Source: Methanobacteriaceae archaeon
Lineage (GTDB): Archaea > Methanobacteriota > Methanobacteria > Methanobacteriales > Methanobacteriaceae
Direction of reading: 5' to 3'
Assembly (NCBI GenBank): GCA_003558085.1
Contig: PWMT01000048.1
Span: 1-16,124, forward strand
DNA length: 16,124 bases
The notes beneath the pieces were generated by a model, which was given only the letters and a program-made list of their open reading frames with translations, was not told the origin of the DNA and did no database searches. The first letter of the stretch is position 1. Each line of letters begins with the position of its first letter. The translations under genes were made by a program, and so were the position numbers. Shown here piece after piece: positions 2,477-16,124 of the stretch.

Positions 2477-3259
2477 ATGAACATATATCCGGAAAAAACA
2501 GATTTAATAAAGCATATTGCGATAGATGAAAACATGCCGACTTTATTAGTTGGTGAAGCTGGTTTAGGTAAATCATACACTGCTGTATTAGCAGCTCAGA
2601 GTGCTGAAAGAGATTGTAGAACTGTTAATTTATCTAAGCAATCTGATTTAGTTGATTTATTAGGTCAGTTTATTTTAGAAAAAGATGGTGAAAATTCAGT
2701 ATTTAAATGGGTTGATGGTGTAATTACTCAAGCAGCCCAAGAAGGAAAAGTTCTGATTTTAGAAGAATTAACTATGGCTGATGGGACAATCCTGGCAGCT
2801 TTACATGGTTTATTCGAGAAAAAACCTAAATTATATACTACTAACGGTGATGTAAAAATCCACCCAGATTTCAGAGTTATAGGAACTTCTAATCCAAGCT
2901 GGACAAACTATAACGGAGTTTCTGAATTAAACTATGCATTTGAAGACCGTTTTGTCCACATTTTATTTGACTTCCCCCAAAGGCAAACTATTGAGAAGTT
3001 TTTAGAACCCTTTGAAAGGAATATAGAAAAAAGAGATATCGATATTGATGATATATATGATGTTGCTAAAAGATTATTCGAGTTATATCCGCGAAATGTT
3101 CCTAATTTCTTATCTCTTAGAGGGTTAGAATTTTTCAGTAAACTTCTAGGAACTTACAATGTTAAACAATCCTTCGAATTAGCAATTTTAAATAAAATGG
3201 AGAAAGAGGAGCGTAGTAAGGTAGTAGATATTATAGATAACTATATAGCTATCTACTAA
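2477..3259 (+). CDS. MoxR-family (CbbQ/NirQ/NorQ/CobS-like, AAA_5) ATPase
   Basis: Walker A GEAGLGKS, DLLGQF...FKWVDGVIT motif, Walker B LILEE, HPDFRVIGTSNP sensor 1, AFEDRF arginine finger. Confidence 0.9.
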   Translation: MNIYPEKTDLIKHIAIDENMPTLLVGEAGLGKSYTAVLAAQSAERDCRTVNLSKQSDLVDLLGQFILEKDGENSVFKWVDGVITQAAQEGKVLILEELTMADGTILAALHGLFEKKPKLYTTNGDVKIHPDFRVIGTSNPSWTNYNGVSELNYAFEDRFVHILFDFPQRQTIEKFLEPFERNIEKRDIDIDDIYDVAKRLFELYPRNVPNFLSLRGLEFFSKLLGTYNVKQSFELAILNKMEKEERSKVVDIIDNYIAIY

Positions 3260-3912
3260 TCCTTTTTATCTCCAGAAACCCACTTGTCATCTTCCTTTCT
3301 CTGTGAAGCCATCACAAGACCAGCAAAGCTGTCATCTATTCCATGAATCATCTTTTGACCATGCTCCATTTCTTCAAGCTTTGTTATCATTGTTGCTAAG
3401 TTTGCTATTGCTTCCTCTGTTGCTTTAGAGAGGCCAGCTACCGATGTTCTTTCGAATTTGCCCCCTCTACCAACTCTGGAAGTTTGTATACTTATTAGTT
3501 GTCTCATTAAATCAATAGCGTCAGGTCGTTCTTCATAGAAATTAATGAGTTCTCGACGCTCTGTTTCTGAAACAGAGTTTAAAAAATTTGCTAAGAGATG
3601 GCTTTTACTACCATTTTTAACAGCGTCAGGAGATGTTCCGGTTTTAATTTGTATTACAGATTTTTCAAATGCAGCGTCTTTATATAACTCGACTCCTTCA
3701 AGTTTTAAATCAGCTCGTAATTTAGCTAGACCTTTTTCATCAATTCCAAATTTTCTACATAACTCAGAGTTAGGAGTAAAAGGATATAATCTAATCAACA
3801 AACTTTTCTCCTTATCAGTCAACTCTTCTACCGTTCTTTCGGGTTCGTACGGGTCATCCTCTACCTTTAGAGGGAACCCCGATGGTTCTTCTAATTCTTT
3901 CATCTTCATCAC
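3256..3912 (-). CDS. Hypothetical protein with probable N-terminal HTH (exact start uncertain)
   Basis: 218-aa ORF. LTDKEKSLLIRLYPFTPNSELCRKFGI looks HTH-like and the C-terminus is helical. Convergent with MoxR with overlapping stops. Confidence 0.6.
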   Translation of the reverse strand: MMKMKELEEPSGFPLKVEDDPYEPERTVEELTDKEKSLLIRLYPFTPNSELCRKFGIDEKGLAKLRADLKLEGVELYKDAAFEKSVIQIKTGTSPDAVKNGSKSHLLANFLNSVSETERRELINFYEERPDAIDLMRQLISIQTSRVGRGGKFERTSVAGLSKATEEAIANLATMITKLEEMEHGQKMIHGIDDSFAGLVMASQRKEDDKWVSGDKKD

Positions 3913-4393
3913 TTAACTCAAATATTTTCATATCATCCAATGTTTCACATTTATGCATACCTATACCTTTAAAAATTATGAAATAGGACAGGGGTAATTC
4001 AGTATTCTTATGTACCTCTCTCCCATTATCCCACTTAGCTCTTCGGTCTACATATTGGTAAGCTGCTGCGAATATTTCTGTTATATCGTTACCATATAAT
4101 TCTTCAATTCGTTTTTTAATAACCGGAGCCATTGGCTCTTTGGGTTCTTCTGTGAGTTTTAAAGTAAAATTACGTCTTCCTATCATTTCATTAAATCTAA
4201 ATCCTTCCACTAATAATTTACCAACATCTTTTGGTTGCAAAATAATATCTAGGCGGTCTAAAGCAGCTTTAGTTTTCATACCAAGATTTTCTACATAATC
4301 AGTTAAAATATCAATATCTTCATCACTTAACTTTGCATTGGCACGTGATTGAACATATTTTTCATAGTTTTCTAAAAATTCATCGTCCTCCAT
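3854..4393 (-). CDS. Hypothetical protein
   Basis: 179-aa ORF with minus-strand RBS GAGGCGA just upstream of the ATG and a TATA box upstream; no recognised motif. Confidence 0.7.
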   Translation of the reverse strand: MEDDEFLENYEKYVQSRANAKLSDEDIDILTDYVENLGMKTKAALDRLDIILQPKDVGKLLVEGFRFNEMIGRRNFTLKLTEEPKEPMAPVIKKRIEELYGNDITEIFAAAYQYVDRRAKWDNGREVHKNTELPLSYFIIFKGIGMHKCETLDDMKIFELSDEDERIRRTIGVPSKGRG

Positions 4394-4597
4394 TCTTATC
4401 GCCTCTTTTTATTATTAGTAATCTTAAATTGGTATATATTATTATATAAAAATAAAAGGATATGAGTTAAAAACAAAATGTTTAAATAACAATAGTGACA
4501 AGACATAATATAATTACTAAAAAAAGGTGAATAAGAATATTAAATTAGTTTTAAATAGTCAAATTCATTAAAATGTATAAAATACTGAGGTGAAAAT
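4394..4597. promoter_or_regulatory. Divergent archaeal promoter region
   Basis: Minus-strand TTTATATA (4450-4443); plus-strand TTTAAATA at 4481-4488 and again at about 4550-4557; RBS GAGGTGA before ATG 4598; very AT-rich. Confidence 0.6.
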
Positions 4598-5632
4598 ATG
4601 GGTTTTGAAAGAAAAAAAACCAGTGTAGAAGAATTAGAGAAAAAAGCAGAAAAATTAGCAGAAGAATATAAAGTAACAGATTTGGAAGACAAGATTGAGC
4701 GGTTTATAGACGAATATAAAACTATAAATCCTGAAGGCAGCGATGAGGATATCAGGGTTCGAGCATATAACAGATTTATTTTATCTATGAAAGGTAAAAA
4801 AGCTCGAAATCTACAAGATGTTAAGGCTGTATTATTCAGTAAACGACCGGCATATGATTTTGCTCAGAAGCCTAGACAGGACGCTCAAGATTACGTTGAA
4901 AAATATGGTAAAGAAAAAGCTATAGAGGATGGATATGTGAATCAAAAAGGTGATTTTTTATATACTACACCAAAATGGAAAAAAGGGAATGTTATTCCCG
5001 AGCACGAATATAGCAGTACAGCTTACGGTGTCTTTAAGTTAGAAAATGATGATGCACCGAAGTATGGAGAATTACACCTTTCAGGTTCACAGGCTATAGA
5101 TTTCCTTCCTTTATATGAAGAGGTGGAATTTGAAGGTAGAATTAACAAAAATAAAAGTACAGCGAAATTTTATGACATCTATTTATCTTCTGAAGTTCGC
5201 TCTAATGGTAAGAAAGTAGAGTTTTGGGATTTCTCAGAGATTCTTGATTCTGCTATACCTGAGAGATTTATCTCATCGTTTGATGATTTAGTAGTTTATT
5301 TAGACCAGGGGGTGAATGGTAAAGATAATTGGTGTTTAGTGCAATGCGAAATTATAGATATAGGTATGGTAGATAATACAGATGAAAGTAAAAATGTACC
5401 AGTGACACTGTCTGACCCAGAATCTATCACCTCAGATAGCTACACTTTCTGGGCTGAGCCAGAGTTAGCCAAAAGTATAAAGGGAGAATTATTCCCAGAT
5501 GCGATTGTAAGTCTTCGACCATACAAGAAAAAGGATGGTACGATTTCTGGACAGATTTGGAGCGTATTTGCGCCTGAATTAATGGAAGCAGAAGAGGCAG
5601 AAGATTTAGATGAATTAGAGGAGGCATGGTAA
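4598..5632 (+). CDS. Putative single-stranded DNA-binding protein (multi-OB-fold, acidic tail)
   Basis: 344 aa with beta-rich, aromatic-containing segments (EEVEFEGRI, WCLVQCEIIDI, YTFWA) and a very acidic C-terminal tail (EAEEAEDLDELEEAW). First gene of the replication operon, near a Sak4-like ATPase. The ORF is clear; the function is inferred. Confidence 0.45.
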   Translation: MGFERKKTSVEELEKKAEKLAEEYKVTDLEDKIERFIDEYKTINPEGSDEDIRVRAYNRFILSMKGKKARNLQDVKAVLFSKRPAYDFAQKPRQDAQDYVEKYGKEKAIEDGYVNQKGDFLYTTPKWKKGNVIPEHEYSSTAYGVFKLENDDAPKYGELHLSGSQAIDFLPLYEEVEFEGRINKNKSTAKFYDIYLSSEVRSNGKKVEFWDFSEILDSAIPERFISSFDDLVVYLDQGVNGKDNWCLVQCEIIDIGMVDNTDESKNVPVTLSDPESITSDSYTFWAEPELAKSIKGELFPDAIVSLRPYKKKDGTISGQIWSVFAPELMEAEEAEDLDELEEAW

Positions 5633-5635
5633 GGT

Positions 5636-5887
5636 ATGAAAATGAATATACCAAACGAAAATGAAGAGCAACAGGATGACATGAATGAAAATCCAATGGA
5701 TAGGTTGATAAGGTCTTTAATGTATGACTTAAGGTTATTAGAAGTTGATGCCAGTATGGTTCAGTCATTAGAGGCTAAAGTAGAAATTAAAAGACTGATT
5801 AAAGAAAAGCGCTACGAACTCCTAGGATTTATCGAGGCACTTAATAATCAAGCTAGAATGGAAGAGGAAAGGCAAAAACAGGTGTAA
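5636..5887 (+). CDS. Hypothetical small coiled-coil protein
   Basis: 83-aa charged helical ORF tightly packed between its neighbours. Confidence 0.65.
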   Translation: MKMNIPNENEEQQDDMNENPMDRLIRSLMYDLRLLEVDASMVQSLEAKVEIKRLIKEKRYELLGFIEALNNQARMEEERQKQV

Positions 5888-5891
5888 GAAG

Positions 5892-6767
5892 ATGTGGGGA
5901 GATGAAAAACAAGAAAAAACGAGAAAATCAAAAAAGAATTTTATCGAAACAAATCGACAAATGCTTTTTGAAAAACCTCTAACCCTTCCCGAAGAAGTGC
6001 CTAGCTGTGTCATGATTTATGGCAAGGACGGAACGGGTAAAACGGGGTTATCCCTCTCCGTTTTAACTGACAAGGATATAAAGAAAGGTCAGAAAATCGT
6101 TATTGTAGATTTAGATTCAGGAAATCTACCTTTACTATTGGAATATCACAAAGATAAAGTAAATAAACATATACTATATAGAGACCCAGTAGTATGGGAG
6201 ACAGATGACGATGGCATGCCTATAATAAATTATAAAGAAACTATAGGTCATATTAACTCTATAGCTATTGCTGCAAAGAACAGATGGAAAGAAAAAGGTG
6301 ATATAAAAGCAATAATCCTTGACGGAGGCAGTAAGCTTTTAAAGCAAGCAGAATATCAAATGAGGCTCGACCGATACATAGAACCCGCAGGAGAAGTTTC
6401 TTATCGCTTCTGGGCCGAAAGAAACAAAATGTTCCAAGAGACATTAGAATTATATAAAAATTTACCCTTTGACAAGTATTTTATAATGCACGAGGATTTC
6501 GTACCACACTTAACACCACCTAGTAAAGAGATGGCAGCAGTAAGGCAGTTTGCTAACCAAATGATGTATCAAAAAATCTATTGCGAGCGCATAGACAAAG
6601 CAGTAGCTGTAGAATTTGCCGCGACTATCGATAAATCCAAGTTTAGCATAGGTAAAGAAGGAAAACAAGAGGTTTTTGCCAGCGCCAATAAAAGCGACGA
6701 ATCATTTAAATGGGAACCTGAAAAGATTTTAAGGCACTTGAAACCTTCATACGCCGGAGATGATTAG
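5892..6767 (+). CDS. RecA-fold ATPase, AAA_24/Sak4-like (putative single-strand annealing protein)
   Basis: Walker A MIYGKDGTGKT, IVDLDSG strand, Walker B AIILDGG, and FIMHE strand typical of phage AAA_24/Sak4 proteins. Confidence 0.7.
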   Translation: MWGDEKQEKTRKSKKNFIETNRQMLFEKPLTLPEEVPSCVMIYGKDGTGKTGLSLSVLTDKDIKKGQKIVIVDLDSGNLPLLLEYHKDKVNKHILYRDPVVWETDDDGMPIINYKETIGHINSIAIAAKNRWKEKGDIKAIILDGGSKLLKQAEYQMRLDRYIEPAGEVSYRFWAERNKMFQETLELYKNLPFDKYFIMHEDFVPHLTPPSKEMAAVRQFANQMMYQKIYCERIDKAVAVEFAATIDKSKFSIGKEGKQEVFASANKSDESFKWEPEKILRHLKPSYAGDD

Positions 6768-7430
6768 TTGGCTACTTTTCTACAAGCAAATACAATATTG
6801 AATGCTTGGCATAAAGCAGTTAAAGAAGTCTACCTCAACGGTGCGACAATTATAGACGAAAATGACACAGAAACACGAGAAATTCTTGATTTAATCATTG
6901 AAATACGAAACCCTAATATCCAAATTGGAGAACATGAGTTTTGGAAAACCGATGCCATTGAGAGGTATTGCGAGCAATTACTCGACTCCTCGAAGGGCTC
7001 TTTTTCTTACACGTATGGTAATCGTTTACGTAGCCATTTTATCAGTAATCCATTACTCGACCCAAAAAAGATTGACCAGATTGAAAAAGTTATTAGAAGG
7101 TTGGAGAAAGGAAATAATACTCGTAAAGCTGTTGCTGTACTCTTCGATCCAACGGTCGACCACGATGCAGATGATATACCTTGTATTGACCTCATAGATT
7201 TCAAGATTCGAAATAAAAAGCTTTACCTTTCTGCATACTGGCGAAGCAACGATATTTATGGTGCTTATTATGCGAATGTCAAAGGTTTAAAGTATGTTGC
7301 TGATTTCGTAGCTGAAAAAACTAATTCAGAATTGAAACGCATCACTACGCATGGTGGGTCAGCCCATATCCTCAAGTACGATTTTGTAGCTGCTGAGGAG
7401 CTTGCGATGATGGATAAAATGAAAAAATAA
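6768..7430 (+). CDS. thyA: Thymidylate synthase, archaeal/methanogen ThyA type
   Basis: YTYGNRLR, NTRKA, catalytic IPC, WRSNDIYGAYYAN (Asn indicates dUMP specificity), SAHI; TTG start directly after the upstream stop. Confidence 0.9.
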   Translation: MATFLQANTILNAWHKAVKEVYLNGATIIDENDTETREILDLIIEIRNPNIQIGEHEFWKTDAIERYCEQLLDSSKGSFSYTYGNRLRSHFISNPLLDPKKIDQIEKVIRRLEKGNNTRKAVAVLFDPTVDHDADDIPCIDLIDFKIRNKKLYLSAYWRSNDIYGAYYANVKGLKYVADFVAEKTNSELKRITTHGGSAHILKYDFVAAEELAMMDKMKK

Positions 7431-7441
7431 GAGGTGATAAA

Positions 7442-7564
7442 ATGATAACTGGGATACCGGCATTAGAATTAATTAGAATAGGTTTCTTCCTTTCAATAGG
7501 TTTTTCACTAATCTGGATAATAGTGCTTATATTATCTGTTATTGGAAGAATTTTTTCTAAATAA
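7442..7564 (+). CDS. 40-aa single-pass membrane microprotein MITGIPALELIRIGFFLSIGFSLIWIIVLILSVIGRIFSK (not in ORF track)
   Basis: Strong RBS GAGGTGA at 7431-7437, a hydrophobic stretch of about 22 residues, and a T-tract after the stop. Confidence 0.7.
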   Translation: MITGIPALELIRIGFFLSIGFSLIWIIVLILSVIGRIFSK

Positions 7565-7571
7565 TTTTTTT
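7565..7571 (+). terminator. Possible archaeal oligo-T terminator
   Basis: T7 run directly after the stop of the last gene of the 4598-7564 cluster. Confidence 0.4.
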
Positions 7572-7572
7572 G

Positions 7573-7600
7573 ACCATTAATGGTAAAATATATATATTAG
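7573..7600 (+). promoter_or_regulatory. Promoter of the polymerase operon with a 12-bp palindrome ACCATTAATGGT abutting BRE/TATA
   Basis: Perfect palindrome at 7573-7584 followed by AAAATATATATATT; GAGGAG RBS before ATG 7635. Confidence 0.55.
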
Positions 7601-7634
7601 AAGAGATATAAATTATAGAACTCGAGGAGAAAAA

Positions 7635-9071
7635 ATGAGGGAAAGAAAAATATTTGAAGCCATAAAAAACTGCAAGAGCTGCGAATTACATAAAACAGCC
7701 AAAAACAAAGTCATCGGCCGGGGGAGTCTTTCCCCGGATGTCTTATTTGTTGGCGAAGCGCCTGGAGCAGAGGAAGACATACAGGGTAAACCATTTGCAG
7801 GACCGAGCGGAGAACTCCTAAACCACTGGATAAAAAAATTGAAGACTAAAAAAGTAGCAATAATAAATATAATAAAATGCCGCCCACCAAAAAACCGAAC
7901 CCCTACTAAGGAAGAGGTAGAAGAGTGTTCGAAATTTCTCGAAGCTCAAATAGAATTATTAGACCCTAAAATTATTGTCGCATTAGGTACTGTTGCAATG
8001 AAAGAATTATTAGGGTTTGACACAGGGATACTAAAAAAAAGTGGAAAAATAGAAACCAGTTACAAATATTTTAATAAACCAGTTTTTATAATGCCACACC
8101 CCGCTTACTTCTTACGCCAGGGCGGAAAAGGTTGGGAAGATGATATAAAAAGTTTAAAGGAAGAAATAAATAAAAAACATCACTTTCAACCTTTCGTACC
8201 ACTTCATGTACATTCTCATTTTTCAATAAAAGATGGGTCTAGTAAATGTTCCGAATTATTTAAAGAAGCAAAAAAACAAGGTTACACAGCTCTAGGCATC
8301 AGCGACCACGGCACAGTGGCTGGATGGGTGGATTTTGCTATGGCAGCAAAACAATATGAAATAAAACCGATATTTGGGATAGAATTTTATGTAGGTAACT
8401 CACATAAACCAAAAGATAAAAATAGAGAACATATATGTGCTTTCGCTAAAAACCAGAAAGGAATAGAAAATATTATAAAATTAGTAAATATTAGTAACGA
8501 TAACGAACATTTTTATTATAAACCAAGAATTTTTTTAGAGGATTTAATGCAATATAAAGAAGGGTTAGTTATAACATCAGCATGCGTATTAGGAGTTATT
8601 TCCCAAAAAATAATCGAAGGAGATTATCCAGAAGCAAAGAAAATAGCTGAAATGTTAAAAAAAGAATTTAAAAACGATTTTTATTTAGAATACCAAATTC
8701 ATAATTTCGATAAGCAGGAAAAAGTAAATTTAGCAATTAAATCTTTATCTGAAGAATTAAATATACCCACAATAGTAACCACCGATGTACACTACACGAA
8801 TAAAAGTTTTAAAGAATTACATAATAGTTTGAAAGCTATCGCATATCATAAGAAATATGGGGAAGCGAATTTTACAGGAGACTCCCATTGCATACTAAGT
8901 ATTAAAGAAATGGCTGAATATGCAGAAAACGTAGGTTTAAATTACCAAGAAGTAATGAAAGCAGCAAAAAATACACTAGAAATAGCAGAAAAATGTAATG
9001 GAAAATATGAATCATTTGGCTTAATTATTCCAAAATTTGATGCTACAAAATATTCACAACAAATAAAATGA
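7635..9071 (+). CDS. udg: Family-4 uracil-DNA glycosylase fused to the PHP domain of DNA polymerase III alpha (N-terminal part of split DnaE)
   Basis: UDG4 part: CKSCELH, GEAPG, KCRPPKNRTP...C, HPAY. PHP part: LHVHSHFSIKDG, ISDHG, IFGIEFY, FYYKPRI, TSAC, TTDVHY, ending at IPKF where the DnaE PHP domain ends. Confidence 0.92.
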   Translation: MRERKIFEAIKNCKSCELHKTAKNKVIGRGSLSPDVLFVGEAPGAEEDIQGKPFAGPSGELLNHWIKKLKTKKVAIINIIKCRPPKNRTPTKEEVEECSKFLEAQIELLDPKIIVALGTVAMKELLGFDTGILKKSGKIETSYKYFNKPVFIMPHPAYFLRQGGKGWEDDIKSLKEEINKKHHFQPFVPLHVHSHFSIKDGSSKCSELFKEAKKQGYTALGISDHGTVAGWVDFAMAAKQYEIKPIFGIEFYVGNSHKPKDKNREHICAFAKNQKGIENIIKLVNISNDNEHFYYKPRIFLEDLMQYKEGLVITSACVLGVISQKIIEGDYPEAKKIAEMLKKEFKNDFYLEYQIHNFDKQEKVNLAIKSLSEELNIPTIVTTDVHYTNKSFKELHNSLKAIAYHKKYGEANFTGDSHCILSIKEMAEYAENVGLNYQEVMKAAKNTLEIAEKCNGKYESFGLIIPKFDATKYSQQIK

Positions 9072-9082
9072 GGTAAAAAATA

Positions 9083-11536
9083 ATGGAAGATAATTACACA
9101 ATTATGGAAAAGCTTTGTCAAAAAGCCTTAAAAGAAAAGAAGCTCCATAAAAAACAAGATTACAAAGATAGACTGGAATATGAGCTTCAAATCATAAAAG
9201 ATAAAGACTTCGTTGATTATTTCTTTATCGTAAAAGATGTTGTAGATGCGGCAAGAGAGAAAGGGATTATGTTAGGACCGGGTCGAGGAAGCTCAGGAGG
9301 TTCTTTAATTGCATATTTGCTTGATATAACACAAATTGACCCTTTAAAGTTTGGTCTATACTTTGAAAGATTTATAAATCCTGCTAGACATGATAATCCT
9401 GATGCCGACCTAGATTTTCAATCAAGTAGACGAGATGAAATGTTTGAATATTTAGAGGAGAAATATGGCAAAGAGTGTGTAGCAAGAATACCAAGCATTG
9501 TTAAATTCAAACCTAAATCTGCATTGCGCGATTTAGCTAGAATAGAGGGTATACCTATTCAAGAAGTAAATCTTTTAACAAAAAATATTCCAGATAATCT
9601 TCCACTTGAACATGTGCTTAAATTAAAGGAAGCTTCAATATTTTTGAATAAGTATCCAAGAGTTGCAAAAATTCTTCCTCAACTTTTGGATAAAATTAGA
9701 CATACAGGGGTTCATGCTGCGGCATGTGTAATTACACCTATATCTGTGGACAATTTTTTCCCATTAGAAAAAAAAGGAAGATTTTTCTGTGCATCTTTTG
9801 ACAAAGACGCATTAGAAGATTTAGGTTTTTTAAAATTAGATTTACTATCTTTAAAAACTTTGGATGTAATAGATGAGGCAATAAAGAATATTAATAAAAA
9901 TGGATATAAGACCAAATTACCTTTAGAGCCTGATGACCCAGAAATTTATAATCATATTTTTATTCCAGCTTATACAAATGGTGTTTTTCAATTTGAAACA
10001 ACGAATTTAACCGATTATGCTAGAAAGGTTAAAATCGATAGTTTTAAATTATTAACTGATACGACTTCCATAGCTCGTCCTGGAACAGCAGCTAGTGGTG
10101 ATGCGGCTAAATATATTGATAGAAGGCACGGTAAAGAAAGTGTTCAATATATACATCCGTCTTTAGAGCCAATTCTGCATGATACATATGGAATTATTGT
10201 ATATCAAGAGCAAATCATGCGGATTGTTAATGAAGTAGGGGGTTTACCTTTAAGTGATGCGGAGATTATAAGAAAGTTAATTTCCAAATCAAAAGGAATA
10301 TCTGCTCTAGAAAATTACAGAAATAAATTTGTTGAGGGCGCCCAAAATAATGGGGTTTCTAAGGATTTGGCTAATAAGATTTGGGATTCTATAAAGGAGG
10401 CTGGTAATTATTCATTTAATTTGTCTCATGCTGTGGCTTATAGTCTAATAAGTTATTGGTGTGCTTGGTTAAAACGTTATTATCCTCGTGAGTTTTTAGC
10501 GGCTTTGATGAGGTTTGAGGAGGGTGGAATGTTTGCTGCGGCTACGGAAGAGTTGAAGTTAATGGGGTATAAAGTTTTAGACCCAGATGTTAATACTTCT
10601 GATAATCGTACAAGCATTAATGAATCTGGTGATGTGTTGATTGGTTTAGAGGACGTCGATCAGGTTGGCTCTGCGGCTGTAGAGGAGATTAAAAGGTTAA
10701 GGCCATTTAAAAGTTTCGATGATTTCTTGGATAGGGTAGAGGCTCGTAAAGTTAATAGTCGCTCCATAAAGCATTTAATATTTGCTGGAGCGTTTGAAGC
10801 TTTCGGAGAGAAGGAAAAGCTTTATTATAGAATAGCAACGGATGAAAAACCTCGTAAATGGACGGATAAGGAAGAGATTATGAAAAAATATGCTGTTATA
10901 AAAACTAGCCCTCGGCAGCCTATTATTAACTTCTTCGACCATACAGCCATCCAAGCAACCAAAAACAACGGCGGCCTGACGGACATTGGGGCGGTCGATT
11001 GGGAGTCTGCCTCGGAGGAAGTTTATATTAAAGGAATAATTACCGAAATCGACATCAAAATAGGATATGCAATAATGGATATAAACGATGGAACAGGCAC
11101 AGCAAATGTTTTAATACCTAAAGAAAGCTTAGACAAATACCGTGAAATATTCGAAGAAGGAACAGGAACACCAATACTAATAAAAGCCCACAAAAGAGCT
11201 GAAAATAGTAGATTCTACCTTGATATGTTAATCGACTTAAGAAACGAATTAGAATCTGATAGTAAAGAATATAGATATTTAACTGGCGAAACATATAAAT
11301 ATATAACAGAGCAGGGTAGAAGTGGCGAAGCATTAGTTGTATCCTCCTCATATTTCTTATCAAAACAAAACCAGAATAGAGGTACAAGATTAACATTAAT
11401 AAATCAAGATGGCATGTTTAATAGAATGTGTTTCGATTCTCTACAACAAGATATAGAGGCAGGAGATATCATCAAATTCCAAGAATCGGGCTACGAACAA
11501 GTTTTTATAAAATTCATAGATTTTATTTATTCATAA
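9083..11536 (+). CDS. dnaE: DNA polymerase III alpha (family C) catalytic core lacking PHP: palm, thumb, fingers, HhH, OB
   Basis: GPGRGSSGGSL, FERFINPAR, PDADLDF (catalytic Asp pair), HAAA, KLDLL (third Asp), GVFQFE, RPG, YQEQIM, YSFNLSHAVAYS, PDVNTS, OB fold VYIKGII...INDGTG; own RBS GAGGT at 9070-9074. Confidence 0.95.
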   Translation: MEDNYTIMEKLCQKALKEKKLHKKQDYKDRLEYELQIIKDKDFVDYFFIVKDVVDAAREKGIMLGPGRGSSGGSLIAYLLDITQIDPLKFGLYFERFINPARHDNPDADLDFQSSRRDEMFEYLEEKYGKECVARIPSIVKFKPKSALRDLARIEGIPIQEVNLLTKNIPDNLPLEHVLKLKEASIFLNKYPRVAKILPQLLDKIRHTGVHAAACVITPISVDNFFPLEKKGRFFCASFDKDALEDLGFLKLDLLSLKTLDVIDEAIKNINKNGYKTKLPLEPDDPEIYNHIFIPAYTNGVFQFETTNLTDYARKVKIDSFKLLTDTTSIARPGTAASGDAAKYIDRRHGKESVQYIHPSLEPILHDTYGIIVYQEQIMRIVNEVGGLPLSDAEIIRKLISKSKGISALENYRNKFVEGAQNNGVSKDLANKIWDSIKEAGNYSFNLSHAVAYSLISYWCAWLKRYYPREFLAALMRFEEGGMFAAATEELKLMGYKVLDPDVNTSDNRTSINESGDVLIGLEDVDQVGSAAVEEIKRLRPFKSFDDFLDRVEARKVNSRSIKHLIFAGAFEAFGEKEKLYYRIATDEKPRKWTDKEEIMKKYAVIKTSPRQPIINFFDHTAIQATKNNGGLTDIGAVDWESASEEVYIKGIITEIDIKIGYAIMDINDGTGTANVLIPKESLDKYREIFEEGTGTPILIKAHKRAENSRFYLDMLIDLRNELESDSKEYRYLTGETYKYITEQGRSGEALVVSSSYFLSKQNQNRGTRLTLINQDGMFNRMCFDSLQQDIEAGDIIKFQESGYEQVFIKFIDFIYS

Positions 11537-11547
11537 GGAGGGGAATA

Positions 11548-11805
11548 ATGCGAAAAAGGAGTAAAAAAGATGTAGTTAATAGTGTATATGCAATATTAAA
11601 GGAGGGTGAACCTCTCATGTCTCATCAACTAGTAAATAGGCTTTTGAATCGTGATTTAATAGGTTCACATATGGGCATGTCGAGTTCACGGTTAGCTAAA
11701 CTCATGAGTGCGGACGGAAGATTTGTAGAAGTTAGCCGAAGCGTAAAAGGTAAAATTATATGGGGAATTAAAGGAGTTGATTATGGTGAGACTATCGAAA
11801 AGTAA
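11548..11805 (+). CDS. Winged-helix (HARE-HTH-like) DNA-binding protein, 85 aa
   Basis: True start is likely ATG 11548 after AGGAGGGG, not 11428. VYAILKEGEPLMSHQLVNRL...RFVEV...IWGI is a wHTH pattern. Confidence 0.6.
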   Translation: MRKRSKKDVVNSVYAILKEGEPLMSHQLVNRLLNRDLIGSHMGMSSSRLAKLMSADGRFVEVSRSVKGKIIWGIKGVDYGETIEK

Positions 11806-12544
11806 AATTCTAACTTATCTAGATTGTCCTAGAAAATTTAAATATAGATATATTGATAAAACTAAAACATCTGAACCAGAAGAAGGTTCTCCTTTAAAAA
11901 TTGGAATAGATGTACATGAGTTATATGAATGGTACTATAAACACCCTGATGCTCCTCATATAGATTCTGAAGAGAGTATTAAGAGAATATTGGCAGAAAA
12001 CCCTTTATCTTCAAAATATCCTCTTTACGCAAAAAACTTTATAGAATTTAATATGGAACTTTTTAATGAATTAGGAGCTCCAGCATATCTTCCAGAAAAT
12101 GTAGAATTATATTTACATGACCCATATTTTGATATACATGGATATATTGATGCAGTTTTTGATAGTCCGGCTGGTAAGATTATTGTAGATTATAAAACCG
12201 GCAGAGAACACCCAATAGGAAAATACTCTCTTGAGCTTCTAATGTATAAAATTCTATATGAAAGAGTAGCCGGGGATAAGGTAGGTTATGTTGGCGCTTT
12301 TTTCCCTAAAGGGGGAAACAAGTGGAGAATGGCTAAAATAGTTCATGCAGGAGAAAACAACCCTAAAAAAGGAGCTTTTTTTACCATAGAAGATGAATTC
12401 ATTGTATTAGAAACAATCGACCAAGTAAGAGAAAGAATTAAAGATAACGAATTTGACCCGCCCGACGATATATATAAAAAGAAATTTATGTGTAATTACT
12501 GTGAATATAAAGACTTATGTAAAAAAGAAGGTGTGAATTTATGA
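11783..12544 (+). CDS. PD-(D/E)XK RecB/Cas4-like exonuclease with Fe-S cluster
   Basis: LSKSKILTYLDCPRKF, GIDVH, GYIDAV, IVDYKTG, C-terminal CNYCEYKDLC (four-Cys staple). AGGAG RBS favours ATG 11783. Confidence 0.88.
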   Translation: MVRLSKSKILTYLDCPRKFKYRYIDKTKTSEPEEGSPLKIGIDVHELYEWYYKHPDAPHIDSEESIKRILAENPLSSKYPLYAKNFIEFNMELFNELGAPAYLPENVELYLHDPYFDIHGYIDAVFDSPAGKIIVDYKTGREHPIGKYSLELLMYKILYERVAGDKVGYVGAFFPKGGNKWRMAKIVHAGENNPKKGAFFTIEDEFIVLETIDQVRERIKDNEFDPPDDIYKKKFMCNYCEYKDLCKKEGVNL

Positions 12545-12906
12545 AAGAGTATCAAAAAACTCTTGATGTTTTAGCCGAAGAGTTAAACCATAAATTCCCA
12601 AAATTAAAAAAAAGTGAAATACAATCAATAATATTTGAAAACATTATAGAGGATTTTACAATACCTACCGAATATATTTTAAACAATAGTTACTGCAATA
12701 ATTGTAAATTTTGTTGTGAGCATTGTCCAGACTTAACAGAGGATAATATATGCTCTAACATTTCCCCTCCAAAAGAGTGTAAATTCTTTCCATACTGGGA
12801 AAACGAACAAAATAGAGGTATTTTTTTGTTTCCAGAATGCGAGTCTGCTTATACAATAGTTTTTAAATATTTGTGTTTACAAATTCAAAAAAAAATGAGG
12901 TGTTAA
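12541..12906 (+). CDS. YkgJ-like CxxCxxCC cysteine-cluster (Zn/Fe-chelating) protein
   Basis: CNNCKFCC..CPDL....ICS.....PKECKFFPY pattern; ATGA overlap with the upstream gene. Confidence 0.7.
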   Translation: MKEYQKTLDVLAEELNHKFPKLKKSEIQSIIFENIIEDFTIPTEYILNNSYCNNCKFCCEHCPDLTEDNICSNISPPKECKFFPYWENEQNRGIFLFPECESAYTIVFKYLCLQIQKKMRC

Positions 12907-12907
12907 A

Positions 12908-13879
12908 ATGAAAAAGTTTTTCCAAATCTTTATAAAACCTAAATTTAGAAAAACATTTGATTTATCAAATAAAAAAAGTGCAATGAAATTAATAAACGAT
13001 AATAATGTACGAAAAGACCTTTATAGAACTATATATAACTATGAAGGCAATGTAGAAGGAAATCAGGCTATCATAGATAAAGTTTTTTTAGATTTCGACC
13101 CTGAAGAAAGCGAAGAAAAATTATTAGAAGATGTAAGAAAAGTATCAAATTTATTGAATAATAAAAATATTAAACATTCTCTTTTCTTTAGTGGCAGAGG
13201 TTTTCACATATTTGTATATACCAATATAATTAAAGCTAAAGATTTAATAAATCCTAGAACCGCTATTAGAAACTTTGTAAATGACATAATTGAAATAACA
13301 AAAGCATCTGTGGATTATCAGGTTGTAGGAGATTTAATGAGAGTAGCTAGAATACCTAATACTATGAATATGAAAACAAGACTTTATTGTATTCCTCTTG
13401 ACCAAAAAGAATTAGAATATTCCATTGAATATATTAAGGATTTAGCAACCTCACAAAGATTTTTTAAAAAAGATTCAGAGGGTAAACCTTTAGATTTAAA
13501 AGTATATGATACCGGAACTAAAACTCAATTATCTGATTTAGAGGTTACATTAGAAAGCGATGAGGATTTAGATATAGGCGAGTTAGGTAAACTTGATTTA
13601 CCATCATGTGTATTACACTCTTTAAAAAAAGGTAGACCTAATTTTCAAGAGCGCTTTATGATTATAACCTGTTTAAGAGATTTAGCTTTTTCAAAATCAG
13701 AAGTATCAAAAATATTAATGAAGTTTTTAACTGAAGACCGATACACTCATTGTATAGAGGAAGAAAGACAATTGGATTATTTATTTAATAGACAAGACCT
13801 ATTATTCCCTTCATGTAGTAGAATAAAGGAAATGGGGTTTCATGTAAAGGGTTGTACAGGAAATCAAATATATGAGTAG
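12908..13879 (+). CDS. priS: Archaeo-eukaryotic primase: PriS catalytic domain fused to a PriL C-terminal-like domain
   Basis: Motif I FLDFD, motif II FSGRGFH, motif III GDLMRVARIPNT. The C-terminal LPSCV...ERF...PSCSRIKEMGFHVKGC resembles the PriL Fe-S domain. Confidence 0.85.
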   Translation: MKKFFQIFIKPKFRKTFDLSNKKSAMKLINDNNVRKDLYRTIYNYEGNVEGNQAIIDKVFLDFDPEESEEKLLEDVRKVSNLLNNKNIKHSLFFSGRGFHIFVYTNIIKAKDLINPRTAIRNFVNDIIEITKASVDYQVVGDLMRVARIPNTMNMKTRLYCIPLDQKELEYSIEYIKDLATSQRFFKKDSEGKPLDLKVYDTGTKTQLSDLEVTLESDEDLDIGELGKLDLPSCVLHSLKKGRPNFQERFMIITCLRDLAFSKSEVSKILMKFLTEDRYTHCIEEERQLDYLFNRQDLLFPSCSRIKEMGFHVKGCTGNQIYE

Positions 13880-14543
13880 AGGTGTTATAATGGAAGTTTT
13901 TGTTGATACTAGAGAGCCATCAAGTATTGTTAAAAGTGGTAGAGTTCTTTATCCTCATTTAATCGAGAAGAAATTGGATTATGGTGATGTGATGTTTGTG
14001 AAGGATAAGAAATGTATTTGTATCGAGAGGAAGAAGCCGGCAGATTTTGCAAGCTCCTGTGTTAGTGGTAGAATGTATAATCAGGCTATTAATTTAAGAA
14101 ATGCTTGCACTCAGTCAGTTATTGTTATAACTGGTTCATATGACGATATTAAAAATAATAAATATATTAAAAATTTTTCTAAGAAAAAATGGAATTCTCA
14201 TATACTTTCACTAATATTGCGCTACGGTGTTCCTATTGTCTTTGCTGATAATGATAATAAATTTTGGGATAAGTGTGCCGAAATTGAACGTATAGGATAT
14301 AAAGAGACACCATTGGCTCGTAGAGAAGTTAAAAAATCAAGTGATAATGTATATGTTGATATGTTATGTGCAATACCTTCTATTGGTGAAAAAAGAGCTA
14401 TATCACTTTTGAATGCTTTTGATTTTACTGATATTTTCTTTTTAGATGTAAAGGATTTAATGAAAATTCAGGGGATAGGTAAAAAAAGAGCTAAAGAAAT
14501 TAAGCGATGGATGAAAATGAATGGGAGGCTGTGCGATTGCTAG
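13872..14543 (+). CDS. ERCC4/XPF (Hef-like nuclease module) structure-specific endonuclease with tandem HhH
   Basis: VDTRE, GDV, IERKK..DF nuclease motifs; IPSIGEKRA and IQGIGKKRA HhH repeats. Start may be the second Met (13889-13892 region). Confidence 0.9.
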   Translation: MSRGVIMEVFVDTREPSSIVKSGRVLYPHLIEKKLDYGDVMFVKDKKCICIERKKPADFASSCVSGRMYNQAINLRNACTQSVIVITGSYDDIKNNKYIKNFSKKKWNSHILSLILRYGVPIVFADNDNKFWDKCAEIERIGYKETPLARREVKKSSDNVYVDMLCAIPSIGEKRAISLLNAFDFTDIFFLDVKDLMKIQGIGKKRAKEIKRWMKMNGRLCDC

Positions 14544-14755
14544 CAATAAAAAAAGAAGAATTAAAACGTAGAGTTGAGGATGGAGATTCATTAAAAGAAA
14601 TAGCTCATGACATAGGTGTTTCTATAGGTTATTTAAGTCGTCTCTGTAATAAATATAAAATTAAAGCTCCAAAACCTGGTAGAAAAAAGGGTGTCGCCTT
14701 ACCTGAGGAGCATAAACAAAAGATTGGCGAGAGTATAAGAAATAGGGGGCATTAA
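14507..14755 (+). CDS. Small HTH protein with C-terminal NUMOD3-like motif (start possibly GTG 14531 or TTG 14537)
   Basis: SLKEIAHDIGVSIGYLSRLCNKYKI HTH; GVALPEEHKQKIGES NUMOD3-like; GGAGG at 14524-14528. Confidence 0.7.
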   Translation: MDENEWEAVRLLAIKKEELKRRVEDGDSLKEIAHDIGVSIGYLSRLCNKYKIKAPKPGRKKGVALPEEHKQKIGESIRNRGH

Positions 14756-15490
14756 ATGGATCAATTACTAAAGAAAGGTGCTGTTTTGATCGAAACATAT
14801 AAAAGAGTAAGGAAAGAACAAGATAGTTCACTTTCAAGACTTAGAAGCGCTAGAAGAGGTTTACCCATCAATGTTATTCGAGACTTGGAAGATTTAATAT
14901 ATTTTCCTTTCGATAAAATTATTAATAATTTAGAAGATGAAATTGCTAATACAATGCAATTAATTCCTGTATATAATAGTTTTTTATATAAAATTAAGGG
15001 GCTCAATATATATGATGCATTAGAAATTTTAGTCTTAATTCGCGATGTTAAACGATTTAAGAATATTAGTAAATTATGGGCATATGCTGGACTTGCACCT
15101 ATTGAATACTGTAAGGTTTGTGGCAAGAGAATGAAAGCAAAAGTGAATTATTGTAAATGTGTTTCACCTGAAATTGTTATGATGACTGAGAGAAAACGCA
15201 ATGGAGGGCAGGTTTCTTATAATGAGAGGCTTAAAAAGAAATTAAATCAAGTCTTTAATATTGTAATAGATACTGATGAGTATTATAAAGATAAATATTC
15301 AGAGTATAAAATTCATGAATTTGCAAAGGAAGATAGAATTACTGCATTACACGCAAAAAACAGAGCAAAAAGAAAAGTAATAAAACTCTTTTTAAATCAT
15401 TTATTTATTGAATGGGCAAAGTGTGATGACATTAAGAAACCCCGACCATATCAACCGTTATCGGATTTTAAGGAGGCTGAAGATGAGTAA
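14756..15490 (+). CDS. IS110 Transposase_20 / Nop-domain-like protein lacking the RuvC (DEDD) domain, with Zn-ribbon insertion (TasA-like candidate)
   Basis: IKGLNIYDALEILVLIRDVKRFKNISKLWAYAGLAP matches the IS110 C-terminal domain, followed by CKVC...CKC, YNERLK and HAKNRAKRKVIKLFL. The N-terminus is only a short coiled coil. Confidence 0.75.
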   Translation: MDQLLKKGAVLIETYKRVRKEQDSSLSRLRSARRGLPINVIRDLEDLIYFPFDKIINNLEDEIANTMQLIPVYNSFLYKIKGLNIYDALEILVLIRDVKRFKNISKLWAYAGLAPIEYCKVCGKRMKAKVNYCKCVSPEIVMMTERKRNGGQVSYNERLKKKLNQVFNIVIDTDEYYKDKYSEYKIHEFAKEDRITALHAKNRAKRKVIKLFLNHLFIEWAKCDDIKKPRPYQPLSDFKEAEDE

Positions 15491-16124
15491 TATTTTAGTT
15501 GTAAAAAGTAATGGTGAATGTGAAACATTCAAACCAAGGAAGATTGTTGAAAAATTAATTAATGAAGCAGATGTAGAGCCAGATTTGGCTAAAAACATTG
15601 CTAGACGTGTTTCTCGAAAGATTAGTGATTTAGATATTGACGAAATTGATAGTATTAAAATTAGAAATATTGTTAACAACCATCTAATCAAAGAAGGTGA
15701 ATTTGATAGAGAAACTCAGCATGAACGTCTGGGCGTTAGTGTGGCTGACATTAAGGACCAAATAGAGAATGGGAGTCGGGACAACGCAAATATGTCTCAT
15801 AATCCAGAAACAATTCATAAAATGGTAGCAGATATGGCGCTTAAACAGTTCGCTTTAATCGACTTACCCTCTGATATTGTCCGTTCTCATGTTACGGGTG
15901 ATTTTCACTGTCTTGCTCCAGAAATGTTAATTGTATATAAAATTAAAGAAGAAATTTATTTATCTACAATTAAGGATTTTGTAGAAGATTATTTTAATAT
16001 AGAAGAGGATATTTTTGTCCCTAGCTTCAATGTAGAGAATAAGGAGGTTGAATGGAAAAAAGTAGTTAATGTAATGAAAAATGACCCATCACAGTTATAT
16101 AAAATTACTTTTACAAGAGGAAGA
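15483..16124 (+). CDS. nrdD: Anaerobic (class III) ribonucleotide reductase with ATP cone, intein-containing; 3' truncated (not in ORF track)
   Basis: MSNILVVKSNGECETFKPRKI ATP cone; RLGVSV...ENGSRDNANMSHNPETIHKMVADMALKQFAL...SHVTGDFH resembles methanogen NrdD; AGGAGG RBS; frame open to the window end. Confidence 0.88.
   Translation, partial: MSNILVVKSNGECETFKPRKIVEKLINEADVEPDLAKNIARRVSRKISDLDIDEIDSIKIRNIVNNHLIKEGEFDRETQHERLGVSVADIKDQIENGSRDNANMSHNPETIHKMVADMALKQFALIDLPSDIVRSHVTGDFHCLAPEMLIVYKIKEEIYLSTIKDFVEDYFNIEEDIFVPSFNVENKEVEWKKVVNVMKNDPSQLYKITFTRGR
15909..16124 (+). mobile_element. Intein N-terminal splicing region within nrdD (continues beyond window)
   Basis: NrdD similarity stops after GDFH. 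The sequence continues CLAPEMLIVYK (block A, Cys1), TIKDFVE, VPSFN...VEWKKV, LYKITFTRGR, typical of a Hint-domain N-terminus up to just before block B. Confidence 0.85.

Follow-up and report, generated by a model that had tools for sequence, protein, structure and literature searches.

A nuclease-less TIGR-Tas homologue without canonical guide arrays in the replication operon of PhiF1-like methanogen viruses

Here we describe a small gene near the 3' end of a 16,124-nucleotide (nt) stretch of DNA, hereafter the window, which is the entire contig C145 of a 175-contig, 1.86 Mb metagenome-assembled genome (MAG; G000) of a Methanobacteriaceae archaeon. The gene (14756..15490, + strand) encodes a 244-amino-acid (aa) protein, P0001, which has a coiled coil and a Nop-type C-terminal domain without a nuclease domain, and which we show to be a homologue of the Tas proteins of TIGR-Tas systems, described in 2025 (Faure et al., PMC12045711). 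Its ATG at 14756 directly adjoins the TAA (14753-14755) of an upstream helix-turn-helix (HTH) gene, and its own stop (15488-15490) lies in an 8-nt overlap with nrdD, whose ATG is at 15483; since from 11777 onwards every gene of the window abuts or overlaps its neighbour, these genes form one operon, as the initial annotation, made from the sequence alone, had proposed. The stretch, or part of it, is contained in four DNA sequencing runs and in none of the listed RNA runs, and the contigs compared over the gene differ by a single substitution (15207 G>A, Gly151 to Glu), too little for a dN/dS estimate. The MAG encodes Nop5 and McrA and is therefore that of a methanogenic archaeon, with which a 16-kb fragment of a virus resembling Methanobacterium virus PhiF1 (cultured; complete genome, 74 kb) has been binned.

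The AlphaFold2 model of P0001, for which 24 homologues served as input, has a predicted local distance difference test (pLDDT) score of 91.5 and runs through two helices (residues 2-32 and 38-68), three short helices, a strand pair at four cysteines, three long helices (157-223), and a loose tail. The first two helices form an antiparallel coiled-coil hairpin (residues 2-68; 14759..14959; pLDDT 96-98) that aligns in structure to the coiled coil of TasR and TasH and is probably the counterpart of the dimerisation element of solved Tas and Nop5 structures, dimerisation of P0001 itself being putative. The Pfam model PF02371 (Transposase_20) matches residues 77-118 only (14984..15109; E 8.6e-6, 26.5 bits, cut-off 21.3), a segment which ends in RF..ISKLWAYAGLAP and whose F101 and G112 are invariant in 24/24 sequences; a longer stretch, residues 65-232, is matched by PHROG 4285 (E 2e-14), which bears the label 'transposase'. 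Next comes a four-Cys ribbon (residues 119-135, CKVCGKRMKAKVNYCKC; 15110..15160), with cysteines 119, 122, 133, and 135 in a CxxC-x10-CxC arrangement and strands 116-119 and 140-143 around it modelled at pLDDT 77-85. The three C-terminal helices (15224..15424) carry the conserved motif H199-x2-N-R-A-x-R-K-x2-K-x-F, aligned to the same motif in TasR (9mty), and are followed by Tyr232 (15449..15451). No DEDD/RuvC, HNH, or other nuclease domain was found in P0001 by Pfam or in the model, which opens with the coiled coil at residue 2, and the architecture first read from the sequence, a coiled coil plus an IS110/Nop-type C-terminal domain without DEDD/RuvC, is confirmed.

The Nop fold is common to Tas, IS110, and Nop5 proteins (PMC12045711, in the text available), and comparison with each of them, as the initial annotation had recommended, gave a consistent order of TasR, TasH, IS110, and Nop5. 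A phmmer search of all PDB sequences with P0001 returned a sole significant match, TasR chain 9mty_A (E 8.5e-11), which belongs to the cryo-electron microscopy structure 9MTY of Faure et al. 2025 (PMC12045711), and no IS110 chain at E <= 10. Structure alignment with VIA-align gave Z 21.1 for TasR (9mty_B; 199 residues, root-mean-square deviation 3.0, 23% identity), Z 17.4-18.7 for TasH, Z 14.1-14.3 for ISCro4 and IS621, and Z 8.6 (1nt2_B, 150 residues) and 7.6 (3nvi_A) for Nop5; Foldseek placed TasR first (E 4e-8), followed by TasH, IS621, and ISCro4. The NCBIfam model NF052498 (TIGR_Tas_endo) scored P0001 at a sub-threshold 80.7 bits (E 1.4e-22), compared with 21.4 bits for the IS110 model NF033542 (cut-off 140). 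The Nop5 model PF01798 did not match P0001, whereas it matched the Nop5 of the host at E 3.9e-62, and no fibrillarin-binding N-terminal domain is present in P0001. PADLOC gave no match for the Tas-like proteins. P0001 is thus a nuclease-less, TasA-like homologue of TIGR-Tas proteins, as had been suspected, with TasR and TasH as its nearest solved structures.

Where the IS110 copy of the host MAG reads GLNLIENSSGKHKGK (GL....SSGK), P0001 has GLAPIEYCKVCGKRMKAK (GLAP...CKVCGK), and the CxxC knuckle occupies the site of the IS110 Ser-Ser-Gly loop. The replacement of the catalytic Ser loop by a Cys ribbon, also claimed at the outset, is therefore seen in this comparison, in which the placement rests on the shared GL motif because pairwise BLAST of the two proteins is not significant overall (E 0.13). 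When its place along the chain is compared with the segment scheme of a 2026 preprint (Xu et al., 10.64898/2026.09.09.750476, section 6, in its available part), the ribbon may sit at the 'wedge insertion' position of Tas proteins. The gene junctions, at which neighbours abut or overlap, leave no room for insertion sequence (IS) ends or a bridge RNA, the MAG holds one copy of the Tas-like gene, and synteny is fixed among related viruses, all in keeping with the non-mobile character ascribed to the gene.

An exhaustive phmmer search identified 509 cluster representatives of relatives at E <= 1e-3, of which 68 reach E <= 1e-10; most are 180-430 aa long. Pattern-seeded searches yielded 34 related loci, 30 of them metagenomic and 4 from IMG/VR. 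One of these is an identical 1.1-kb copy; the others share 23-50% identity in the best-matching segment, most of them 23-29%. When the loci were scanned for periodicity, 17 of the 34 proved to have arrays adjoining the gene, with a period of 35-37 nt in 15 and of 73-74 nt (two units) in L018 and L022. The five arrays inspected are textbook dual-repeat arrays of the form TG....CCA-N9, as in L010 (TGTTAACCA-N9-TGAAACCCA-N9), and agree with the UG...CCA box rule of TIGR arrays given in section 8 of PMC12045711. A word-index search with P0001 returned no protein but itself, and there was no match in IMG/VR searched with P0001 or P0004 alone, in a genome-contig search with A2, or by tblastn of P0001 against 50,697 phage records (at 1e-3). 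Among 300 other genomes of the order, three had partial matches of low significance (E 2.6e-7 to 2e-5, within query positions 42-166), and none of 328 other genomes of the phylum matched at E <= 1e-8; the Tas-like gene is therefore not a host gene.

Processing of tigRNA by SpTasH depends on the catalytic residues Y289 and H296 (PMC13421893, available text). A Y-x6-H regular expression flagged 16 of 27 extracted locus proteins; P0004 and P0005, which are not among these 27 and which it also flagged, are false positives in which the alignment shows the loop to be absent. Across a dyad alignment of 25 sequences, SpTasH included, the Tyr is present in every row (Tyr232 of P0001 aligning with Tyr289 of SpTasH) and the His in 15; the 10 rows without it all belong to the clade of P0001. 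The 9-residue segment that bears the His is gone in P0001, P0002-P0006, P0008, P0012 (identical to the L011 protein), and ORF53 of PhiF1.

The clade itself was delimited with IQ-TREE from 91 rows, namely P0001, those of P0002-P0070 that measure 170-450 aa, the locus proteins, PhiF1 ORF53, and SpTasH as outgroup; L008, L025, and L024 (duplicates) and L021, L026, L029, and L031 (doubtful open reading frame (ORF) calls) were omitted. The tree comes from a quick single-model search and has long branches (1.96 for PhiF1 ORF53). Sixteen of its rows form the P0001 clade (Shimodaira-Hasegawa-like approximate likelihood ratio test 96), which comprises the sequences without the His loop together with P0009, P0014, P0022, P0025, P0055, and P0059, and in which the P0014 sub-branch lacks the whole tail, Tyr included. 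The clade is nested among Tyr/His, array-carrying Tas lineages and not among IS110 transposases, and the initial description of the gene as a domesticated IS110 is therefore not sustained. The four-Cys ribbon occurs in 7/15 clade representatives and in many array-bearing relatives, with CxxC...CxC inserts of 10 to about 45 residues, and is therefore a family trait: the Zn ribbon reported at first is indeed present as four cysteines, but it is not special to this gene, being common among relatives that include neighbours of arrays.

The genomes of the clade lack canonical TIGR arrays. The detectors used assume either periodicity or the CCA/TG box rules. Nothing array-like was detected in the window by Tandem Repeats Finder, repeat search, or motif scans, in agreement with the first inspection; the strict unit CCA-N9-TG-N3..8-CCA-N9-TG had 0 matches there, and relaxed forms occurred at or below shuffle expectation. 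In the MAG, whose 175 contigs were all scanned, none of the periodic regions viewed was TIGR-like; these were seven of the 8 regions obtained at k = 7 and all but two weak ones (C137:12647-12751 and C166:29608-29718) of the 5 obtained at k = 6; strict single units numbered twenty, scattered over the 1.86 Mb without clustering. No TIGR array was found in the complete 74-kb PhiF1 genome, where the periodicity scan returned one region (3621-3748) with a 37-nt unit made of two copies of a 14-mer, iteron-like and without a variable part. Strict units were found in 0/5 related viral records, including G331 (138.5 kb, rated 95% complete), a scan of the whole of which gave only two repeats (63- and 74-nt period, with the look of coding repeats) and six scattered relaxed units. 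Flanks of up to 8 kb (less at contig ends) of L008, L011, L025, and L047-L052 likewise contained no array, and stem-flanked, stem-loop-like units were at chance (1 vs 0.73, 1 vs 1.07, and 9 vs 7.0). The strict box C/D pattern was absent from the window, L011, and PhiF1, and in the host MAG it had 1 match against a shuffle expectation of 1.0. Rfam gave one match, at chance level, and no tRNAs were found.

Several repeats and small RNA candidates were observed in the course of these scans. Positions 3600-6800 of the PhiF1 record (L043) are largely non-coding and hold many copies of GTATTAC(T/C).GAGG, with tandem units of 37, 33, and 37 nt at 3621-3748, 4842-4926, and 5470-5543, each of them preceding small genes that have TATA-like promoters; these units have no variable parts and look like operators or iterons. 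An alternative parsing of the 37-nt unit gives repeats of 7 and 12 nt and 9-nt 'spacers'. In the window, the PhiF1 motif GTATTACTGAGG shows no enrichment (2 matches vs 1.13 expected). The sole strict box C/D match of the MAG, at C140 5727-5775, is a perfect candidate for an archaeal box C/D small RNA (sRNA) (ATGATGA-N12-CTGA-N4-TGATGA-N12-CTGA). Contig C118 of the MAG (47041-47326) contains five copies of a conserved element of ~26 nt (TTTTTTACAGTTGCAATTGACCTCTCT) at 56-nt spacing, with two alternating forms of the intervening segment that produce a 112-nt super-repeat; it is intergenic and neither CRISPR-like nor TIGR-like.

The Tas-like gene belongs to a replication and nucleotide-metabolism module (4598..16124, + strand) that is collinear with PhiF1, in the order PolIII-alpha, PD-(D/E)XK nuclease, primase-like, ERCC4, (HTH), Tas-like, and NrdD. 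The PolIII-alpha of the window is most like that of PhiF1 (38% identity, 89% coverage, E 2e-131), 12 six-frame ORFs of PhiF1 are collinear on C145, and no other PhiF1-like contig is in the bin. It was through PolIII-alpha synteny that ORF53 was found in PhiF1, which reads thymidylate synthase, uracil-DNA glycosylase (UDG)-PHP, PolIII-alpha, PD-(D/E)XK nuclease, primase-like, ERCC4 nuclease, ORF53, protease, and NrdD. Metagenome locus L011 has the same order, with a pseudomurein endoisopeptidase further along, and L008 and L025 encode a protein tail of the PhiF1 type. Six IMG/VR loci found with the P0014 sub-branch (L047-L052) carry PolIII-alpha and ERCC4 in 5/6 and NrdD in 6/6. All clade members with context, 12 loci from about 7 distinct viruses, lie in this module, and the synteny persists even though the PolIII-alpha sequences of these viruses share no more than 33-38% identity. 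In PhiF1-like tailed viruses, the hosts of which are methanogens with pseudomurein walls, the clade has a fixed place in the replication operon, and the Tas-like gene has long resided in this conserved viral module. Purifying selection acts in the sister sub-branch, that of P0014, where dN/dS (Nei-Gojobori) is 0.09 for L048/L050 and 0.20-0.22 for L047 against L048 and L050. P0014 itself is named a transposase of a Candidatus Pacebacteria MAG, yet it occurs on IMG/VR viral contigs (L047-L050) with the methanogen-virus replication module, so that the Pacebacteria assignment probably arose from misbinning.

Immediately upstream of the Tas-like gene lies the 82-aa HTH gene (14507..14755, + strand), which is conserved there in 4 of the roughly 7 related viruses; in the window, L011, PhiF1, and L051 it abuts or overlaps the Tas-like gene. 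The HTH protein of the window matches that of L011 at E 4e-24; its PhiF1 counterpart is an unannotated 77-aa ORF between ORF54 (ERCC4) and ORF53 (L042 16489-16722; about 53094-53327, minus strand, in the PhiF1 record) which overlaps ORF53 by 14 nt and matches the L011 protein at E 8e-12, and that of L051 is a weak match (E 3e-4). Because the window and PhiF1 proteins gave no direct BLASTP alignment, their homology rests on the L011 intermediate. The HTH gene is absent from L047-L050, in which the ERCC4 stop abuts the Tas-like start. The ERCC4-type nuclease (13872..14543, + strand) has an HhH2 tail and an intact GD..ERK..D motif, which is invariant in 6/6 sequences, and all related loci with sequence extending that far have its gene upstream of the Tas-like gene. 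On the other side lies the 5' part of nrdD (15483..16124, + strand), which encodes an anaerobic ribonucleotide reductase.

Other features of the window were noted in passing. The Pfam NRDD match of the nrdD frame stops at residue 143, and the continuation ...GDFH/CLAPEMLIVYKIKEE... (around 15900) resembles the start of an intein, although Pfam has no intein match on the ~70 available residues beyond residue 143. The DnaE-type polymerase is encoded by separate genes for UDG-PHP (478 aa) and for the polymerase core (817 aa) at 7635-11536, a split also seen in PhiF1 with ORF58 and ORF57. Near the 5' end, positions 2-1300 and 2477-3259 encode a vWA-like protein (..VLDGSGSM..) and an AAA_5 ATPase of the MoxR type, of which the ATPase alone has a Pfam match; this pairing is typical of chaperone or activation modules.

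Taken together, we consider that P0001 is best explained, with a probability of roughly 0.6, as a nuclease-free Tas homologue that has become fixed in PhiF1-like methanogen viruses and that is a non-cleaving binder without a guide from a canonical array. That it belongs to a Tas-family clade which is array-less and virus-fixed is, taken by itself, highly probable. The protein would dimerise through its coiled coil, its conserved basic Nop surface (H199, N202, R203, R206, K207; isoelectric point 9.4) would bind nucleic acid, and it may serve viral replication, recombination, or gene control as a non-cleaving binder of DNA or RNA. Any guide would presumably come from a source other than a self-processed dual-repeat array. 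Guidance by RNA in some form is conceivable, although we lean against it, and independence from guides, or partnership with a protein, is to be regarded as rather doubtful.

Several observations weigh against this explanation. P0001 falls below the curated NF052498 cut-off of 100 bits, which the SpTasH control exceeds at 118.9, and is therefore a divergent relative and not an equivalog by the NCBI threshold. It has Ala221 in the column of SpTasH R278, mutation of which impairs tigRNA processing (PMC13421893, in the text available) and which is Arg in 19/25 rows. Divergent stem-loop guides could escape detectors built on periodicity or box rules, and PhiF1 does hold 33-37-nt repeat units built on GTATTAC..GAGG. 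The dN/dS values come from relatives and not from P0001, with dS near saturation (0.9-1.0). Finally, the virus of the window is only partly sampled, and since 0.6 kb is available downstream of the gene and the bin has no other PhiF1-like contig, an array may exist elsewhere in that virus genome.

On this last point one might suppose that the gene belongs to an ordinary TIGR-TasA system with its array in the unsampled remainder of the virus genome. The contig is 16 kb long compared with 74 kb for PhiF1, published arrays can be found on either side of tas or within it (preprint 10.64898/2026.09.09.750476, section 5), and the nearest array-bearing relatives also have the Zn ribbon; however, no array was found in the complete PhiF1 genome, in the G331 record rated 95% complete, or in the sampled flanks (<=8 kb) of L008, L011, L025, and L047-L052, and the clade is without the dyad His that dual-repeat systems keep, which together make this explanation improbable. 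A protein that binds nucleic acid independently of guides, as an architectural component of the module possibly recruited by the small HTH protein, is unlikely but would be in accord with the failure of every scan made to reveal a guide, with loss of the RNA-processing loop (extending in the P0014 sub-branch to the tail and Tyr), and with the conserved HTH gene next to the Tas-like gene in four lineages; against it stand retention of the basic Nop motif of RNA-binding Tas proteins and the lack of the HTH gene in L047-L050. It may also be imagined that the ERCC4 nuclease acts in trans with a Tas-like dimer as a two-part effector, because the nuclease-then-Nop gene order mirrors the domain order of TasR and TasH, is found in the window, PhiF1, L011, and 5/6 IMG/VR loci (abutting in L047-L050), and involves an invariant nuclease motif. 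In four lineages, however, an HTH gene separates the pair, ERCC4/XPF-type nucleases have ordinary roles in recombination-dependent replication, and, because the whole module is collinear, the adjacency may reflect conserved gene order alone, so that we judge a two-part effector decidedly unlikely. Nearly as speculative is the more ambitious proposal, for which we see slender but somewhat better prospects, of a Tas lineage without TIGR arrays that is still RNA-directed within a viral replisome module, its guide being drawn from viral transcripts, replication intermediates, or host small RNAs, and the protein perhaps paired in trans with ERCC4 as a two-component guided nuclease.

Two further explanations invoke the other Nop-fold families. 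The host is a methanogenic archaeon with its own Nop5, and, given that the Nop fold is common to Tas, IS110, and Nop5 in the account of PMC12045711, a viral Nop5 mimic might capture host box C/D sRNAs, either borrowing their guides or disturbing methylation of host ribosomal RNA. The similarity to Nop5 (Z 8.6) is much weaker than that to Tas (Z 21), the fibrillarin-binding N-terminal domain is missing, box C/D candidates in the host MAG do not exceed expectation (1 vs 1.0), and in solved archaeal Nop5 complexes RNA is bound together with L7Ae; mimicry of this kind is accordingly very improbable. Decay of a recently truncated IS110 transposase under relaxed selection, which the initial annotation had named as the finding that would speak against it, has in its favour the 'transposase' label found in Pfam, PHROGs, and the PhiF1 annotation. 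It is contradicted by a sequence and fold that resemble those of Tas more than those of IS110, by the constant position of the gene in about 7 viruses so divergent that their PolIII-alpha is only 33-38% identical, by dN/dS of 0.09-0.22 in relatives, and by the missing IS ends and room for a bridge RNA, and is scarcely credible.

No link of PhiF1 or other methanogen viruses to Tas was found in the literature searched, of which Table S1 of PMC12045711 was covered in part, and the clade may already be among the 20,096 published tas loci. The preferred reading of P0001 as an array-less, virus-fixed Tas homologue has several consequences. It defines a second array-less Tas clade, of the TasA type, at one genomic position across about 7 methanogen viruses, and corrects the 'transposase' label that such genes bear in Pfam, PHROGs, and GenBank. 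TasA and dead TasR are RNA-guided repressors in the work of Xu et al. (2026 preprint, 10.64898/2026.09.09.750476), whose available text calls the guide source of an array-less Tas branch an open question. Because cultured PhiF1 carries an orthologue, the guide question of array-less Tas proteins becomes directly testable, and the PhiF1 member, in a virus whose host can be cultivated, offers an experimental entry point for asking whether guides are used at all and what role a Nop-domain protein plays in a viral replication operon.

Comparison with known systems places P0001 as follows. Archaeal Nop5 of box C/D small ribonucleoproteins, of which the host has its own, shares the architecture of coiled coil plus Nop domain, but aligns over 150 residues only and has the fibrillarin-binding N-terminal domain that P0001 lacks. 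The IS110 recombinases IS621 and ISCro4 have a homologous coiled coil and C-terminal RNA-binding domain (Z 14, PF02371), whereas P0001 is without their DEDD/RuvC domain, catalytic Ser, element ends, and bridge RNA. The compact TasR branch of Xu et al. (preprint 10.64898/2026.09.09.750476) is also array-less, but in the text available is described with RuvC and without the coiled coil, the opposite of P0001 on both counts, and the two branches may still overlap. ORF53 of PhiF1 ('transposase 20 superfamily-like protein'; MK994522, QGH71209.1) is the positional orthologue of P0001 between ERCC4 and NrdD, with a small HTH gene before it, and shares the short ...PY..LP tail (BLASTP E 2e-15, 29% identity), but is 206 aa long, lacks the Zn ribbon, and diverges in its N-terminal helical region. 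From TasA (PMC12045711; preprint 10.64898/2026.09.09.750476, as far as their available text describes it) the P0001 clade differs in having no TIGR array, whether dual-repeat or recognisable stem-loop, and a deleted His loop, and the P0001 gene in lying inside a replication operon, not beside an array, with an NCBIfam score under the cut-off. It is nevertheless TasA that P0001 resembles in being a compact, viral protein composed of a hairpin and a Nop domain without nuclease, with the H..NRA.RK motif, the Tyr of the processing dyad, and TasR and TasH as its nearest solved folds.

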